From an uncultured Alphaproteobacteria bacterium (GTDB lineage: Bacteria > Pseudomonadota > Alphaproteobacteria > RF32 > CAG-239): DNA of 64,000 nucleotides. The notes under the pieces are model-generated. The model did not search any database and was not told the DNA's origin. It saw nothing but the letters and a program-made list of their open reading frames with translations. The DNA lies in NCBI GenBank assembly GCA_944391515.1, contig CALXTW010000005.1:5127-69126 (forward strand), read 5' to 3'. Both the position numbers and the translations under genes were made by a program. This document shows, piece by piece, positions 16,692-63,284 of this stretch; position 1 is the stretch's first letter; every line of letters starts with the position of its first letter.

Positions 16692-16719
16692 CCGTTTCCC
16701 TTTCTGTTTGATAAGGGCC

Positions 16720-17017
16720 GTTCTGTTGCTAGGTGGCCCAAACCCCACTTACGACTATCCAAAGTCATAAGAATTTAGATTTGTCGCTTTAGACTAAGCA
16801 GCCAAAGCAACTGGAGCTACGTTATTATCGTTAGCATTCATTTTAATTTGAACCGATAACGGTGGTATCTCACCGGACACAGCTCATATCTTTACTGCTC
16901 CCAGTCAATCCTGTTTCACCCCCGAAGATTTTTAATTGGTGGAGGTGCCGGGTACTGCCCCCGGGTCCTAAAAGCCTATTTTATACTGCCTCTAGTGTCA
17001 TAGCTGATTTCTCAGCG
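16720..17017 (-). ncRNA. ssrA: Two-piece (circularly permuted) tmRNA gene; ends approximate
   Basis: Read on the minus strand. The acceptor piece ends ...GGACCCGGGGGCAGTACCCGGCACCTCCACCA at 16937. After a 13-nt linker the coding piece starts GGGGGTGAAACAGGATTGACTGGGAGCAG at 16923. GGGGGUG pairs with CACCUCC and includes G3:U70. The tag ORF GCT AAC GAT AAT AAC GTA GCT CCA GTT GCT TTG GCT GCT TAG encodes ANDNNVAPVALAA (16835-16794). Confidence 0.9.
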
Positions 17018-17023
17018 GAAAAT

Positions 17024-17052
17024 AGTATAGCTTTAATCTTGTGAGATTTCAA
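17024..17052 (-). promoter_or_regulatory. Sigma-70 promoter of ssrA
   Basis: On the minus strand: TTGAAA (17052-17047), 17-nt spacer, TATACT (17029-17024). Confidence 0.6.
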
Positions 17053-17162
17053 GTGAATTAGTTGAAGCGAACAGATGTTTTATTGACAAAATGCTAATTA
17101 TTGCTAATATTGAGCTCATTATTTTATTTTTATGTCAAATTTAACTTAAAACTTATCTTATT

Positions 17163-31613: not shown

Positions 31614-31690
31614 CGGGACATAGCTCAGCCTGGTAGAGCGCTTGCTTTGGGAGCAAGATGCCGACGGTTCGAATCCGCCTGTCCCGACCA
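31614..31690 (+). tRNA. tRNA-Pro (anticodon TGG), CCA encoded
   Basis: Cloverleaf read by hand: acceptor cgggaca/tgtcccg, anticodon stem cttgc/gcaag with loop tTTGGGa, and T-arm ccgacGGTTCGAATCcgcc. Confidence 0.9.
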
Positions 31691-31708: not shown

Positions 31709-31785
31709 GCGCCCTTAGCTCAGCTGGATAGAGCAACAGCCTTCTAAGCTGTGGGTCAGACGTTCGAATCGTCTAGGGCGCGCCA
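31709..31785 (+). tRNA. tRNA-Arg (anticodon TCT), CCA encoded
   Basis: Acceptor gcgccct/agggcgc, anticodon stem cagcc/gctgt region with loop cTTCTAa, and T-arm agacgTTCGAATcgtct. Confidence 0.9.
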
Positions 31786-31793
31786 TAAAAAAA

Positions 31794-32133
31794 GCCTCCA
31801 TCAGCGGAGGCTTTTTTTATGGCGCGGTGAAGGTTGGTTAACGTGCTCAGCCGCGATAGCGGTGCAAGCACGTGTTAACAACCGAACGACTGGCGCAAAT
31901 CGGCTTGTCCGATGCCGCGACACGCCATGCCTCCATCAGCGGAGGCTTTTTTTATGGTGCGGTGAAGGTTGGTTAACGTGCTCAGCCGCGATAGCGGTGC
32001 AAGCACGTGTTAACAACCGAACGACTGGCGCAAATCGGCTTGTCCGATGCCGCGACACGCCATGCCTCCATCAGCGGAGGCTTTTTTTATGGCGCGGTGA
32101 AGGTTGGTTAACGTGCTTAGCCGCGACAGCGGT
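31794..32133 (+). repeat. Tandem repeat, 135-bp unit x about 2.5, starting at the tRNA-Arg terminator hairpin
   Basis: gcctccatcagcggaggc starts at 31794, 31929 and 32064, an exact 135-bp period. Copies 1 and 2 differ by one base. Copy 3 diverges after about 70 nt. Each copy holds a terminator-like hairpin with a T7 run and a second imperfect hairpin (gttaacgtgct...agcacgtgttaac). Confidence 0.95.
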
Positions 32134-32430: not shown

Positions 32431-34008
32431 ATGGAGAATTTTTTTATGGCGGAAATGATTAAAGAAGAAGTTGTTACTTTCGAACAATGTGACTTTGATG
32501 CTCAAAGAAATATGGTTGTTCAGTATTTTTCAGATGGAAGTAAAATTGAATTAACCAAAAGAGGGGAGAAAGTGGCTTTTAAAAAAGTTATTCATGCAGA
32601 CGAAAGCTATGAATTATATAATGCCAAACAAGTTAAAATTGAAGAACTGACCGGTGACGGAACAAAAAGAAAATTTGACGGTGTTTCCGGTATCTTGCTA
32701 GAAGAGATATGTAAAGATGGAAGTGTTACAAGCTTTCATGCAAACGGGAATATTTCATCACGGAGATGGAATAATAATTCTTGTTATGTTAGCTATTATG
32801 AAAACGGGCAATTAGCACGCAAACAAGAAGATGGATATGAAATTTCTTTGAACTCTAAAGGTGTGGTTAATTATGAGTTTAAGGATGGAAAATTAACAAT
32901 CAATCCAGATTATTTTTCCTTGTATCGATTGGGAGTCAAAATTCCTCAAAGTGAAACTCATTGGGAAGAAAAGGGCGCTCTTTCTCCTAAAAAAAAGACG
33001 TTGTTGTGTTTGGGCGGAGATCAATCCAAAACGGCTAAATCCGCTAATGGAAATATTAAACCTTTTTTGTTTGTGTTGGGGTTGTCTCCGGAACAAATTG
33101 ATAATATGCAACTGTGTTCTTGTTACCGCCCTTTAAGTATGGAACTTAATAGCTTACTTGTTGAAGCAGAGCAGTATGAGCAACAATTTCATGATGATTA
33201 CAAACGAGAGATTTTGCAAAAATTTATGCCTTTTATGGCACAAGTGAAAAATGGAAAATTGGAGAAATATAGTTCTGAAGAGCTTTGTGCGAATTTCAGA
33301 AATATCATTATTCAAGCTCATTGTTATGGAGCTAATGATTTGCCGGTCTATTCTCAAGTGTTTAAGGAAGCCATGACCTCGCTGGGCTATTCTCAAAAAG
33401 AACAGAAAAATGCTTTACGCCAGGTTATCTGTATTACCAATAATTCTCAACGAGAATTTAGAGATAATTTAGGTTTTACCATGATTCATCGCTATTCGGT
33501 GAAAGATGGTCAATTTGAACCTGAATATGAAACCAAATTTTCCGATGGTTATCCTGAATTTTTGAAAGATATTGCTGAATATACCGCTCAAAAAGGTGAA
33601 AAAGCGGCCTTTGTTCCAATGAAGAATAATGAAGTCTTGATGGTGTTTGATAAGGTTTTGATTGACGGTGGTGAGCATAATGCTGGTTTTTGGACGACAA
33701 ACGAAAATAATTTAACAGAAGTAGGAAGAAAACAAGCCTTGCTTATGAAGAATATTGGAACATTTTGGTATAATAATCAAAAAGATTTGCCTGATGTTGT
33801 TAATTTATTAGAAGAATGTTCAAAGCAAAACGGTTTGGAAGATTTTGTTCAAAACTCTCTCCAACAAGGTAAAAAACTCAAAAAAAGTCAACATAATGTT
33901 TTGGAAAATCGACATATTTTGAAAAGTGCCAAAAATAAGTTTAAAAGCCCTGATTATGAGCCTGAGAAAACTGGTATTTATAAATTGCTTTCGCAAAATG
34001 TGAGATAA
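32431..34008 (+). CDS. Hypothetical 525-aa protein with N-terminal MORN/YwqK-like repeats and an unassigned C-terminal domain
   Basis: Repeats of the type ...DGS.I.L...GE.V.F..., FHANGNISSRRWNNNSCYVSYYENGQLARKQ in the first ~170 aa. The remainder has no recognised motif. ATG at 32446 is an alternative start. Confidence 0.65.
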   Translation: MENFFMAEMIKEEVVTFEQCDFDAQRNMVVQYFSDGSKIELTKRGEKVAFKKVIHADESYELYNAKQVKIEELTGDGTKRKFDGVSGILLEEICKDGSVTSFHANGNISSRRWNNNSCYVSYYENGQLARKQEDGYEISLNSKGVVNYEFKDGKLTINPDYFSLYRLGVKIPQSETHWEEKGALSPKKKTLLCLGGDQSKTAKSANGNIKPFLFVLGLSPEQIDNMQLCSCYRPLSMELNSLLVEAEQYEQQFHDDYKREILQKFMPFMAQVKNGKLEKYSSEELCANFRNIIIQAHCYGANDLPVYSQVFKEAMTSLGYSQKEQKNALRQVICITNNSQREFRDNLGFTMIHRYSVKDGQFEPEYETKFSDGYPEFLKDIAEYTAQKGEKAAFVPMKNNEVLMVFDKVLIDGGEHNAGFWTTNENNLTEVGRKQALLMKNIGTFWYNNQKDLPDVVNLLEECSKQNGLEDFVQNSLQQGKKLKKSQHNVLENRHILKSAKNKFKSPDYEPEKTGIYKLLSQNVR

Positions 34009-34012
34009 ACTT

Positions 34013-34138
34013 CCACTAGCTAACGCAAGTGGTATTACCTGTTCCGAACTACGTTCGCCCTGCCCAAAGGCTTCGCAAGCCTAACGGCTGGGCAGGTATG
34101 TCTACATCTACCTGCTTACGCAGGTAGTGTTACGTTCG
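34013..34138 (+). repeat. GC-rich multi-hairpin module in the 3' UTR of the 525-aa gene
   Basis: Four hairpins: 34013-34032 (ccact/agtgg); 34045-34057 (cgaac/gttcg); 34059-34096 (cctgccca/tgggcagg enclosing aggctt/aagcct); and 34108-34127 (ctacctgc/gcaggtag, loop ttac). A second gttcg at 34134-34138 could close the module. Confidence 0.7.
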
Positions 34139-34143
34139 AATCA

Positions 34144-34181
34144 TAAAAAAATCCCCTTTGATTTTTCAAAGGGGATTTTTG
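34144..34181. terminator. Bidirectional intrinsic terminator (525-aa gene and the trxB / Cys-rich operon)
   Basis: 11-bp stem atcccctttga/tcaaaggggat with loop tttt, flanked by A7 and T4-5. Confidence 0.85.
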
Positions 34182-34197: not shown

Positions 34198-34533
34198 TTA
34201 TTTGCAGCTTTTTACGGCTTCATAGATTTTTTTGAAGGCTTCGGCAACACCTTCGGCAGTATAGGTGCGACCTTCAATCATGGTGCGGCAGAGTTCAAAA
34301 GCAATTTCTTTATCGGAATTACAACCGCATCCGCAATCGCAATCACAATCGCATTCGCAACTGCACGGGCAGAGGTTGTTCTCATGGCAGCCACAGCCGC
34401 ACTCACAATCACAATCGCAACCGCAAGGGCAGGGATTGTCTTCTCGGCAACCGCAATCGCAATTTTCATCGCAATGGCAGTGGTGATTGTGTTCTTCTTC
34501 GTGACAACAGCAACAATTTTCGTGTTTTGACAT
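34198..34533 (-). CDS. Cysteine/histidine-rich metallothionein-like protein, 111 aa
   Basis: 28 Cys and 7 His, with 26 of the Cys in residues 7-71 as alternating C-x-C runs. Two internal repeats of C(R/H)E(D/N)N(P/L)CPC(G/S)C... A non-Cys helical C-terminal ~40 aa. AGGAAAGGA lies upstream, 16 nt after the trxB stop. Confidence 0.7.
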   Translation of the reverse strand: MSKHENCCCCHEEEHNHHCHCDENCDCGCREDNPCPCGCDCDCECGCGCHENNLCPCSCECDCDCDCGCGCNSDKEIAFELCRTMIEGRTYTAEGVAEAFKKIYEAVKSCK

Positions 34534-34549
34534 TGTGTTTTTCCTTTCC

Positions 34550-35491
34550 TTAGTCTAAAGATGCAAGATATTTTTCAGCTTCAAGGCAGGCTTGACAACC
34601 CGCGCCGGCGGCAATAATGGCTTGTCTGAAGTGTCCTGATTGAACATCTCCGGCAGCAAAAACACCGGCAATGTCGGTTTGGCAGCTATCAGGGTGAGTG
34701 ATGATGTAGCCTTCGGCATCAAGTTTTAGAGAATCTTTGAAAATTGCGGTATTTGGTTTGTGACCAATGGCTATAAATAATCCTTCAACGGCTATGTCTT
34801 TGGTGGCGCCGGTTTGCGTGTTTTTGAGTCTTACACCGGTGACGCCCAAAGGTGTATCTTGGCCCAGAACTTCATCTACCACGCTGTTCCACTCTACTTT
34901 AATTTTGGGGTTTTTGAATAGTCTTTCTTGCAAAACTTTATCGGCACGCAATTCATCGCGACGGTGAATAAGGGTGACGCTTTTGGCAAAGTTGGTTAGA
35001 TAAATAGCTTCATCAACGGCAGTGTTACCTCCACCGACAACAGCCACATCGCGGTTACGATAGAAAAAGCCATCGCAAGTGGCACATCCTGATACCCCGA
35101 ATCCTCTGAATTTGTTTTCGGAAGGAATACCTAACCAACGTGCTGATGCACCCGTGGCGATAATGACTGTGTCTGCCGTGAAACTATTGCCATTCTCAGA
35201 TTTGCAGACAAACGGACGGGTTTGGAAATTGACTTCCGTGATTTGGTCTTCAATCATTTGAACCCCTAGATTCAAGGCTTGTTGGCGCATATCTTCCATT
35301 AATTGCGGACCGGATACGGGTTTGGGAAAACCCGGGAAATTTTCAATTTCGGTGGTGATAGTTAACTGTCCGCCAAGCTGTGAGCCGGAGACAATTATCG
35401 GATCTAAGCCTGAACGTACGGCATAAATGCCTGCGGTATAACCTGCTGGACCTGAGCCGATAATCAACATTTTGGTTTTGTAGTCTGACAT
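34550..35491 (-). CDS. trxB: Thioredoxin-disulfide reductase
   Basis: 313 aa with FAD motif GSGPAGYTAG, redox-active CATCDG and NADPH motif GGGNTAVDEA. Confidence 0.95.
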   Translation of the reverse strand: MSDYKTKMLIIGSGPAGYTAGIYAVRSGLDPIIVSGSQLGGQLTITTEIENFPGFPKPVSGPQLMEDMRQQALNLGVQMIEDQITEVNFQTRPFVCKSENGNSFTADTVIIATGASARWLGIPSENKFRGFGVSGCATCDGFFYRNRDVAVVGGGNTAVDEAIYLTNFAKSVTLIHRRDELRADKVLQERLFKNPKIKVEWNSVVDEVLGQDTPLGVTGVRLKNTQTGATKDIAVEGLFIAIGHKPNTAIFKDSLKLDAEGYIITHPDSCQTDIAGVFAAGDVQSGHFRQAIIAAGAGCQACLEAEKYLASLD

Positions 35492-35569
35492 GTTTTTATC
35501 CTAGTTTGTTATGTTTCTCATAAAATAGGATTTATATTTGTTTTTTGCAAGGGTGTTTGAGAGTTTTTG

Positions 35570-35606
35570 CAAAACAAAAGCCGACTTGTGATAAAAGTCG
35601 GCTTTG
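35570..35606 (-). terminator. Intrinsic terminator of greA
   Basis: Stem aaagccgactt/aagtcggcttt, followed on the minus strand by TTTTGTTTT. Confidence 0.8.
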
Positions 35607-62786: not shown

Positions 62787-62872
62787 GCGGCCGTGGCGAA
62801 ATTGGTAGACGCGTAACGTTGAGGTCGTTATGAGCTAAGCTCATGGAAGTTCAAGTCTTCTCGGCCGCACCA
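62787..62872 (+). tRNA. tRNA-Leu (anticodon GAG), class II with long variable arm, CCA encoded
   Basis: Acceptor gcggccg/cggccgc, anticodon stem taacg/cgtta with loop tTGAGGt, variable arm gagctaagctc, and T-arm ggaagTTCAAGTcttct. Confidence 0.9.
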
Positions 62873-63284
62873 TACAAAAATAATGTTATGAGCAAGTGCC
62901 TCGGGAGGTATGAGAGCAGGGTTTTGGCTCAGAAGACTATCCCCTCAAAGATGTAACGCTTGCTGCGACCATTGTCATTGGTCTGGCGCGCTAACATCTC
63001 AAGGATTGTTTCGTAAAAACTCAACGTTGGTTGACTTTTTACTCACAATTCTCGGCCGCACCATACAAAAATAATGTTAGGAGCAAGTGCCTTGGGTAGT
63101 ATGAGAGTAGGGTTTTGGCTCAGAAGACTATCCCCTCAAAGATGTAACGCTTGCTGCGACCATTGTCATTGGTCTGGCGCGCTAACATCTCAAGGATTGT
63201 TTCGTAAAAACTCAACGTTGGTTGACTTTTTACTCACAATTCTCGGCCGCACCATACAAAAATAATGTTAGGAGCAAGTGCCTC
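62858..63284 (+). repeat. Tandem repeat, 191-bp unit x about 2.2, each unit bounded by a copy of the last 15 nt of tRNA-Leu
   Basis: ttctcggccgcacca occurs at 62858-62872 (the tRNA 3' end), 63049-63063 and 63240-63254. The distal ~140 bp of units 1 and 2 are identical, and a few substitutions cluster in the first ~50 bp. The third copy stops about 30 bp after the 15-mer. Confidence 0.95.

Follow-up and report, generated by a model that had tools for sequence, protein, structure and literature searches.

The poly-cysteine gene

The DNA considered here, hereafter the window, is a stretch of 64,000 nucleotides (nt) from contig CALXTW010000005.1 of an uncultured alphaproteobacterium. On its minus strand, directly downstream of trxB, the gene for thioredoxin-disulfide reductase, lies a short gene for a protein of 111 amino acids (aa), of which 28 (25%) are cysteines. 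We class the protein and its relatives as a metallothionein-like family that is clade-specific, lacks annotation, carries a conserved domain in addition and has a dedicated linkage to thioredoxin reductase. The gene is organized as follows:

34198..34533 (-): gene for the 111-aa poly-cysteine protein, from the list of open reading frames (ORFs) and translation; stop codon at 34198-34200
34321..34533 (-): codons 1-71, an acidic, histidine-containing, cysteine-rich region of variable length, from composition, AlphaFold2 (AF2) and the ratio of non-synonymous to synonymous change (pN/pS)
34387..34446 (-): module 1, residues 30-49, REDNPCPCGCDCDCECGCGC, from nucleotide comparison with loci L017 and L019
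34321..34386 (-): module 2, residues 50-71, HENNLCPCSCECDCDCDCGCGC, the extra copy that makes the window allele the longest known
34201..34320 (-): codons 72-111, predicted helical-hairpin tail NSDKEIAFELCRTMIEGRTYTAEGVAEAFKKIYEAVKSCK with invariant C82 and C110, from alignment and AF2

An earlier note on this DNA, made from its letters, had described a 111-aa ORF with 28 cysteines, of which 26 fell within the first 71 residues together with seven histidines; the translation is exactly as stated there and a recount of the residues agrees. Cysteine accounts for 37% of residues 1-71, against a background of 1.35% in the long ORFs of the window, and the binomial chance of finding at least 26 cysteines in 71 residues is about 2e-30. 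The same region contains 20 overlapping C-x-C motifs and three CC motifs, 17 Asp or Glu, two Lys or Arg and, in the window copy, no Phe, Trp or Tyr. The residue between the cysteines is mostly Asp, Glu, Gly or His. CPC and CHC motifs are present, and the only CxxC in the protein lies within a CCCC run. In the window's lineage the N-terminus is rich in histidine (HEEEHNHHCHC), and the protein has no signal peptide.

The metallothionein-like composition that the earlier note saw in the protein is borne out: a mass below about 10-12 kDa, the abundance of C-x-C- and CC-type cysteines and the scarcity of aromatic residues are those that define metallothioneins as a class. So is its statement that the protein looks different from SmtA/BmtA. 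The profile search that it had proposed, run as a scan of the full 111-aa protein against Pfam-A and NCBIfam at E ≤ 1, returned no family, and this includes the curated metallothionein hidden Markov models (Pfam Metallothio*, PF02069 Metallothio_Pro and those of NCBIfam). None of the Thioredoxin, Glutaredoxin or Redoxin families was matched in the Pfam scan.

A narrow family with a conserved tail

A protein search returned 55 homologues, which are 63-130 aa long and all lack Pfam domains. When the tail was compared exhaustively with 1.84 billion cluster representatives by phmmer, only one more member (P0056) came to light, bringing the total to 56, which indicates that the family is narrow. 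The only source name among the homologues is “hypothetical protein, MAG Alphaproteobacteria bacterium” (MAG, metagenome-assembled genome). When one genome per species was scanned, the family was present in 15 MAGs, all from uncultured Alphaproteobacteria of sources such as the chicken, the mouse, Hadza humans and the rumen or cecum of deer. Among the carriers is Candidatus Scatocola faecipullorum, which NCBI assigns to the Rhodospirillales.

Every member of the family consists of a variable cysteine-rich N-terminal region followed by a 40-aa tail. Composition statistics were drawn from the 52 intact members found by protein searches, which span 63-93 aa and in which cysteine makes up 24-43% of the cysteine-rich domain. 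Only ten aromatic residues occur in these 52 domains, confined to eight members, and those inspected in the sequences are mostly Tyr where close relatives have Cys. For comparisons of context, reading frame and ribosome-binding site, a set of 28 related loci (L numbers) was used together with the window. Alleles in the related loci reach 94 aa; across the set, including the window, the proteins range from 65 to 111 aa and from 12 to 28 cysteines, and the window allele is both the longest and the most cysteine-rich. The frame is intact in all 28 loci as well as in the window, and AGGAG, AAGGA or GGAG is found at the matching distance before the ATG in all 28.

The tail had been called “ordinary” in the earlier note, a description that does not hold, as no other part of the protein is conserved so well. 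Its consensus is DKEIAFELCRTLIEGRTYTAEGVAEAFKKIYEAVKSC, with 17 invariant columns, two of which are cysteines. Its identity to the window tail is 71-100% across loci in which TrxB identity is 59-97%, so that it is better conserved than TrxB, and it defines the family. Since the tail is the best-conserved part, the protein is not simply a metallothionein.

Codon comparison puts pN/pS at about 0.1-0.17 for the tail, with a mean of about 0.17 and synonymous sites near saturation; against L017, the tail shows nine synonymous differences and no non-synonymous ones. The cysteine-rich region has a pN/pS of 0.08-0.25 in most within-lineage pairs. Many of its cysteine columns vary only between TGC and TGT, few lose the cysteine, and a core of CxCDExCxCGC(Q/R/H)ExxxC(P/T)CxC is common to three of the four lineages. 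Purifying selection acts on both halves of the protein, and this is a real protein-coding gene of a clade-restricted family. A broken frame, a lack of purifying selection or a non-coding microsatellite, which the earlier note had listed as arguments against it, were not seen in the 28 loci.

One homologue stands apart. P0046, a 130-aa protein on an 812-nt contig of the European Nucleotide Archive, joins the N-terminal domain of CD1247 (NF045650, 1.5e-23), a family of Clostridia, to ...CDCGCCG and a family tail much like that of Scatocola, with one differing residue over the 47 aa that it has in common with P0014. It would be a fusion if real. The contig is probably chimeric, joined through Cys/Asp codon repeats, and P0046 was set aside as a clue to function.

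Modules and length variation

The internal duplication that had been noticed in the cysteine-rich region corresponds to modules 1 and 2, which match at 42 of 53 nt. Module 1 matches the L017 allele at 56 of 57 nt and that of L019 at 48 of 57, and module 2 is nearest to the lone module of L019 (56 of 65 nt). The first 87 nt of the window allele are identical to L019 (87/87), and the tail matches L019 at 122 of 123 nt. Such a mosaic of L019-like and L017-like pieces is better explained by diverged alleles having undergone unequal recombination or gene conversion than by slippage. The window allele arose either by recombination between strains or by an assembly join of mixed strains. The exact 111-aa product has no record in public assemblies, while alleles of 87-94 aa are present on many independent contigs; a strain-mixing artefact would concern the second module only and would leave the existence of the gene unaffected.

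All length differences in the family are in frame and lie within the cysteine-rich region. Near-identical alleles differ in length by two to four residues, as in P0005, P0012 and P0013 (91, 93 and 87 aa) and in P0036 and P0037 (73 and 71 aa). The earlier note had suggested that the underlying TGY-GAY hexamer repeats could make the length hypervariable. Tandem Repeats Finder (TRF) does report a period of 6 (4.8 copies, 82% match), along with periods of 12 and 24. However, no perfect tandem tract in the gene is longer than 20 nt. The repeat is thus a degenerate one in coding sequence, and these two values do not fit a contingency locus or coding microsatellite, in which a long perfect tract allows the length to switch by slipped-strand mispairing. 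In-frame variation in length is real, from 63 to 111 aa among intact members, but it looks like the result of occasional unequal recombination and not of rapid microsatellite slippage.

Linkage to thioredoxin reductase

The poly-cysteine gene is the second gene of a unit that contains the following further features:

34550..35491 (-): trxB, thioredoxin-disulfide reductase with a CATC active site, the leading gene of the pair
34542..34550 (-): Shine-Dalgarno-like AGGAAAGGA in the spacer between trxB and the poly-cysteine gene, read from the sequence
34147..34180 (-): intrinsic terminator with a 15-bp stem and T-run, 17 nt past the stop codon of the poly-cysteine gene
35577..35605 (-): terminator-like hairpin after greA, from a hairpin scan

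The product of trxB matches TIGR01292 at 1.5e-123 (411 bits, cut-off 343) and Pyr_redox_2 of Pfam at 8e-55. A gap of 16 nt separates the stop codon of trxB from the ATG of the poly-cysteine gene; it holds AAGGAAAGGA, which ends 9 nt before the ATG. The Shine-Dalgarno sequence, this gap and the terminator after the pair, all described before, were located in the sequence. The terminator and the terminator-like hairpin frame trxB and the poly-cysteine gene as a two-gene unit of their own. The terminator is potentially bidirectional, with an A-run on its opposite side. A promoter-like TTGCAA-17-TATTTT within 35492-35576 was spotted by eye only and lies under the scan threshold. No thioredoxin gene was found within the window.

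The pairing extends to the whole family: in 28 of 28 loci trxB lies directly upstream on the same strand. The spacer is 15-46 nt in all lineages except that of Scatocola (L008-10, L014), where a gene for an outer-membrane protein on the opposite strand has been inserted and the gap is 1071 nt. Co-transcription with trxB, which had been considered likely, is not universal. Most lineages have the ancestral flank Lnb-DUF3015-greA; L005-7, L020 and L023 lack it within 5 kb, yet these retain the pair. The downstream neighbour varies by lineage and can be a convergent 525-aa ORF, DUF1796, AP_endonuc_2 or none. In two lineages a gene for a 2-Cys peroxiredoxin lies between greA and trxB (L001:3031-3891; L008:1955-2848). 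TrxB is the one constant partner, in a neighbourhood of thiol and peroxide defence.

Two observations concern other genes of this neighbourhood. The peroxiredoxin is unusually long, at 286-297 aa, because of an unannotated N-terminal extension; typical 2-Cys peroxiredoxins have about 190-200 aa. Furthermore, a second, unrelated small protein of 57-99 aa with cysteine motifs is encoded next to trxB on its upstream side in L005-7, L020 and L022-26, the “short” lineage (for example L005:3756-4010 (+) and L020:4607-4906), and about 115 nt upstream of trxB in L016, L027 and L028, so that trxB is flanked by two different cysteine-rich genes in those lineages. This protein has the motif KCDCxxDDxCGCx(Y/F)PxN, to which the longer forms of L005, L020 and L022-25 add C(Y/F)CxPxDCDC. 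Only seven homologues of it were found; it is clade-restricted and unannotated, and matches nothing in Pfam or NCBIfam. No member of this second family was found within the window.

Predicted structure and remote similarity

AF2, supplied with alignments of the family, predicted like structures for the window protein and the 65-aa P0023. In both, the cysteine-rich region has no secondary structure and a predicted local distance difference test score (pLDDT) below 50. The tail of the window protein is predicted, at modest confidence, to form two helices, residues 73-88 and 93-108, with a pLDDT of about 60-66 (about 60-73 across both runs), and both helices have heptad-like hydrophobic faces when read from the sequence. 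Such a hairpin would place the invariant Cys110 near the end of the cysteine-rich region and Cys82 in the middle of helix 1. A Foldseek search of the model against the PDB yielded no match at E ≤ 0.001, as expected from a model with a pLDDT of about 50.

Searches for remote relatives brought up a few candidates, none of which was retained. A PDB sequence search with the full protein returned a Kunitz conkunitzin (E 0.03), in which the positions of the cysteines do not correspond. The tail profile, compared with the PDB, matched a helical hairpin of 7,8-dihydroneopterin aldolase (FELCRKVVEDRTY...) at E 0.0014; the match spans 32 columns, with five residues gapped, and was judged to be a local resemblance of two helical hairpins and not homology. 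In Pfam, at E ≤ 10, the tails matched only DUF7917, below threshold and in 9 of the 16 tails scanned (best E 0.047), which says nothing on function.

Apart from the family itself, phmmer with the tail found only P0057, a protein with five FMN_bind repeats, in which GATYTSNGIIEALNKLF resembles GRTYTAEGVAEAFKKIY of the tail. The corresponding element of FMN_bind (PF04205) is a C-terminal flavinylation loop followed by a helix. Here, hhalign gives a probability of 34% and Pfam no match at E ≤ 10; the motif reads EGRT, with Arg replacing the conserved Ala of (S/T)GA(T/S), and the preceding β-structure and the signal peptide are absent. The likeness is treated as a chance resemblance.

A proposed redox-gated metal and thiol buffer

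The favoured explanation, to which we give an even chance of being correct, is that the protein is a cytoplasmic metal and thiol buffer, similar to a metallothionein or phytochelatin, that is kept reduced by NADPH and TrxB. Its composition and predicted disorder are consistent with a metal-thiolate-cluster protein, although they do not prove it. The disordered, acidic (Cys-X)n region of the N-terminal 71 residues would fold only around metal, forming metal-thiolate clusters with Zn(II), Cu(I) or Cd(II) as candidate ions, and the histidine-rich start could contribute ligands for borderline metals. The amphipathic hairpin of the tail may serve in oligomerization or in docking to a partner. Because the gene shares a transcription unit with thioredoxin reductase, the NADPH/TrxB system would keep the 26-28 thiols reduced, either directly or via thioredoxin, and oxidation of the thiols would release the bound metal and thereby make the buffer redox-gated. 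The universal pairing with trxB likewise suggests that the redox state of these thiols matters. That the protein binds metal, which metal this would be, that TrxB or thioredoxin reduces it and what the tail does are all inferred. There is a precedent for peptides of this composition: according to PMC4292183, which cites Bae et al. 2000, ribosomally made synthetic (Glu-Cys)n peptides with 8-20 cysteines bind Cd on expression in bacteria.

Several observations weigh against a redox-gated metal buffer. The strongest constraint falls on the non-cysteine tail, a part that a metallothionein would not require, and by the profile searches the protein belongs to no metallothionein sequence family (Pfam and NCBIfam, E ≤ 1). 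With 17 acidic and two basic residues in the cysteine-rich region, the metal-thiolate clusters would be extremely anionic. No conserved metal regulator (SmtB/ArsR, MerR/CueR, Fur/Zur) or metal transporter was found near the gene among the loci. The 1071-nt gap and the opposing gene in the Scatocola lineage indicate that co-transcription is dispensable there, and since all carriers belong to one clade, the adjacency to trxB is partly inherited synteny.

A more specific version, which we think rather unlikely, is that the family is a hitherto unrecognised class of thioredoxin-reductase partner, a gene-encoded, phytochelatin-like poly-thiol whose hairpin docks on TrxB, so that NADPH would directly control when metal or sulfane sulfur is loaded and when it is released. 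The second, unrelated cysteine-motif protein on the other side of trxB would then complement the system in some lineages.

Alternative explanations

The function might instead be purely redox, with the protein as a dedicated partner or substrate of TrxB: a high-capacity thiol/disulfide or persulfide buffer, or an electron shuttle to peroxiredoxin, its tail being a TrxB docking module and the protein occupying the place that thioredoxin has in the trxB-trxA operons of other bacteria. We consider this main rival doubtful. It would account for trxB being the sole conserved neighbour in all 28 loci and for the lack of metal genes around it, for the prx-trxB-poly-cysteine clusters of two lineages and the second small cysteine-motif protein that flanks trxB in others, and for a tail conserved beyond TrxB itself, as expected of an interaction surface. 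However, low-Mr thioredoxin reductases accept specifically the thioredoxin fold with its CxxC, whereas the protein has neither this fold nor any match to it, and its one CxxC is buried in a CCCC run. Alternating C-x-C with histidines and acidic residues is a metal-ligand pattern and not a dithiol redox motif, and a cysteine number that varies from 12 to 28 suits a buffer with a certain capacity better than a defined electron relay. A cofactor or sulfur carrier, such as a binder of Fe-S or other clusters or a store of cysteine or sulfide in the H2S-rich gut, is quite improbable. The ligand set of Cys with Asp and Glu, the CPC and CHC motifs, the oxygen-poor gut or rumen habitat of all carriers and the redox gene context would suit it, but the canonical Fe-S spacing (CxxCxxC...CP) is absent, isc, suf and nif are not among the neighbours, and a variable number of cysteine repeats is unlike a defined cluster site.

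Less probable again is a redox or metal sensor or regulator, in which the poly-cysteine region would be the sensing switch and the tail an effector that binds a partner as anti-sigma factors or adaptors do. An extremely conserved tail attached to a cysteine region of freely varying length is what such a sensor would have. Nevertheless, neither a sigma factor nor a regulator is a conserved neighbour, and the tail is near-neutral, only 40 aa long and without a match to ZAS or regulatory families. The same combination of a small, hypervariable cysteine-rich part with an invariant part recalls the precursor of a ribosomally synthesized and post-translationally modified peptide (RiPP), in which the cysteine-rich part would be the core and the conserved C-terminus a “follower” peptide for recognition. 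We hold this to be very unlikely: radical SAM, YcaO, LanM, peptidase and exporter genes are not conserved neighbours, no conserved maturase, protease or exporter was found beside the gene among the loci, the downstream gene differs from lineage to lineage, and purifying selection acts on the cysteine-rich region too, which has the conserved core CxCDExCxCGCxExxxC. Least likely of all is that the ORF is spurious and overlies a hexamer microsatellite, or that its 111-aa length is an artefact of an assembly joining the alleles of two strains. The TRF periods of 6, 12 and 24, the mosaic allele and the unrecorded exact product could be read in this way. Yet frame and Shine-Dalgarno sequence are intact in every one of the 28 loci, either half of the protein has a pN/pS of about 0.1, conservation of the tail persists despite near-saturated synonymous sites, the longest perfect tract is short and no frameshifted copies were found in close relatives, while the independent contigs with 87-94-aa alleles speak against a product of assembly.

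Comparison with known systems

Bacterial metallothioneins are few and poorly sampled. With the metallothioneins in general (CUP1, Neurospora and mammalian metallothionein) the protein shares its small size, the dominance of C-x-C and CC, an aromatic-free cysteine-rich region, disorder in the metal-free state (predicted here) and a capacity that varies by module duplication. It differs from them in being acidic, whereas the classical proteins are rich in Lys and Ser, in its obligatory and conserved 40-aa helical domain, and in its operon with thioredoxin reductase in place of a context of metal-sensing regulators; no sequence relation to the Pfam or NCBIfam metallothionein families is detectable. 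SmtA/BmtA (PF02069) and MymT are alike in being cytoplasmic bacterial Cys/His proteins that are known or proposed to bind Zn or Cu. However, SmtA/BmtA, which go together with SmtB, have a zinc-finger-like fold with 9-10 cysteines, aromatic residues and histidine ligands, while the present protein has two to three times more cysteines and another gene context and is not matched by the PF02069 model. MymT has about 53 aa and lacks a helical tail.

The alternation of cysteine with acidic residues (...CDCDCECGCGC...) recalls phytochelatins and the (Glu-Cys)nGly peptides EC8-EC20, in which length likewise sets capacity. The pattern is the α-linked one that was engineered in synthetic phytochelatins. 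Those are enzymatic or designed products; here the chain is encoded by a natural gene, with His/Asn/Pro linkers and a fused, folded tail. The arrangement of the locus resembles the trxB-trxA and trxB-trxC operons, in which a small cysteine protein is also encoded directly downstream of trxB and probably co-transcribed with it, although the window protein lacks the thioredoxin fold and the WCGPC motif. Finally, the Csp copper storage proteins are bacterial, helical and equipped with many cysteine thiolates that give a high metal capacity, but their cysteines line the interior of a four-helix bundle, whereas those of the window protein lie outside the helices, except for two in the helical part. 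A literature search for a bacterial metallothionein paired with thioredoxin reductase or trxB turned up no relevant paper.

Other features of the window

Between the poly-cysteine gene and a block of tRNA genes and radC lies the convergent ORF of 525 aa (32431-34008, (+)), with only a sub-threshold MORN_2 match. L021 has it too (81% identity), but the closest relatives, L011/L018 and L019, lack it at this position, and it is a variable insertion. The stretch from this ORF to the poly-cysteine gene (34009-34146) contains three strong hairpins ahead of the terminator. Together with the terminator it has a fold z-score of -7.5; it is single-copy in the window, has no Rfam match and could be an element of the repetitive extragenic palindrome (REP) kind or a small RNA.

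Two tandem repeats are associated with tRNA genes. One, with a 135-nt unit (31794-32133; 2.5 copies, 98% identity), starts 9 nt past tRNA-Arg(TCT) (31709-31785), which has tRNA-Pro(TGG) (31614-31690) just upstream; the repeat unit opens with a terminator-like GCCTCC...GGAGGC-T7. The other, with a 191-nt unit (62858-63284; 2.2 copies, 97% identity), overlaps the 3' end of tRNA-Leu(GAG) (62787-62872) and is reminiscent of the duplicated att sites of an integrative element. A permuted, two-piece alphaproteobacterial transfer-messenger RNA with the tag peptide ANDNNVAPVALAA is found at 16703-17056 (-) and agrees with the class Alphaproteobacteria.

Significance

If the protein is a metallothionein, an unusually cysteine-dense architecture, consisting of an acidic poly-cysteine region with a conserved folded tail, would join the bacterial set. 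It would provide a natural counterpart to the engineered (Glu-Cys)n metal binders, and a test case for the old idea that the release of metal from metallothioneins is governed by the thiol redox state of the cell. The family marks a clade of uncultured Alphaproteobacteria of the vertebrate gut, and it could bear on how these microaerophiles or anaerobes cope in the gut with oxidative stress, with sulfide and with Zn, Cu or Cd.

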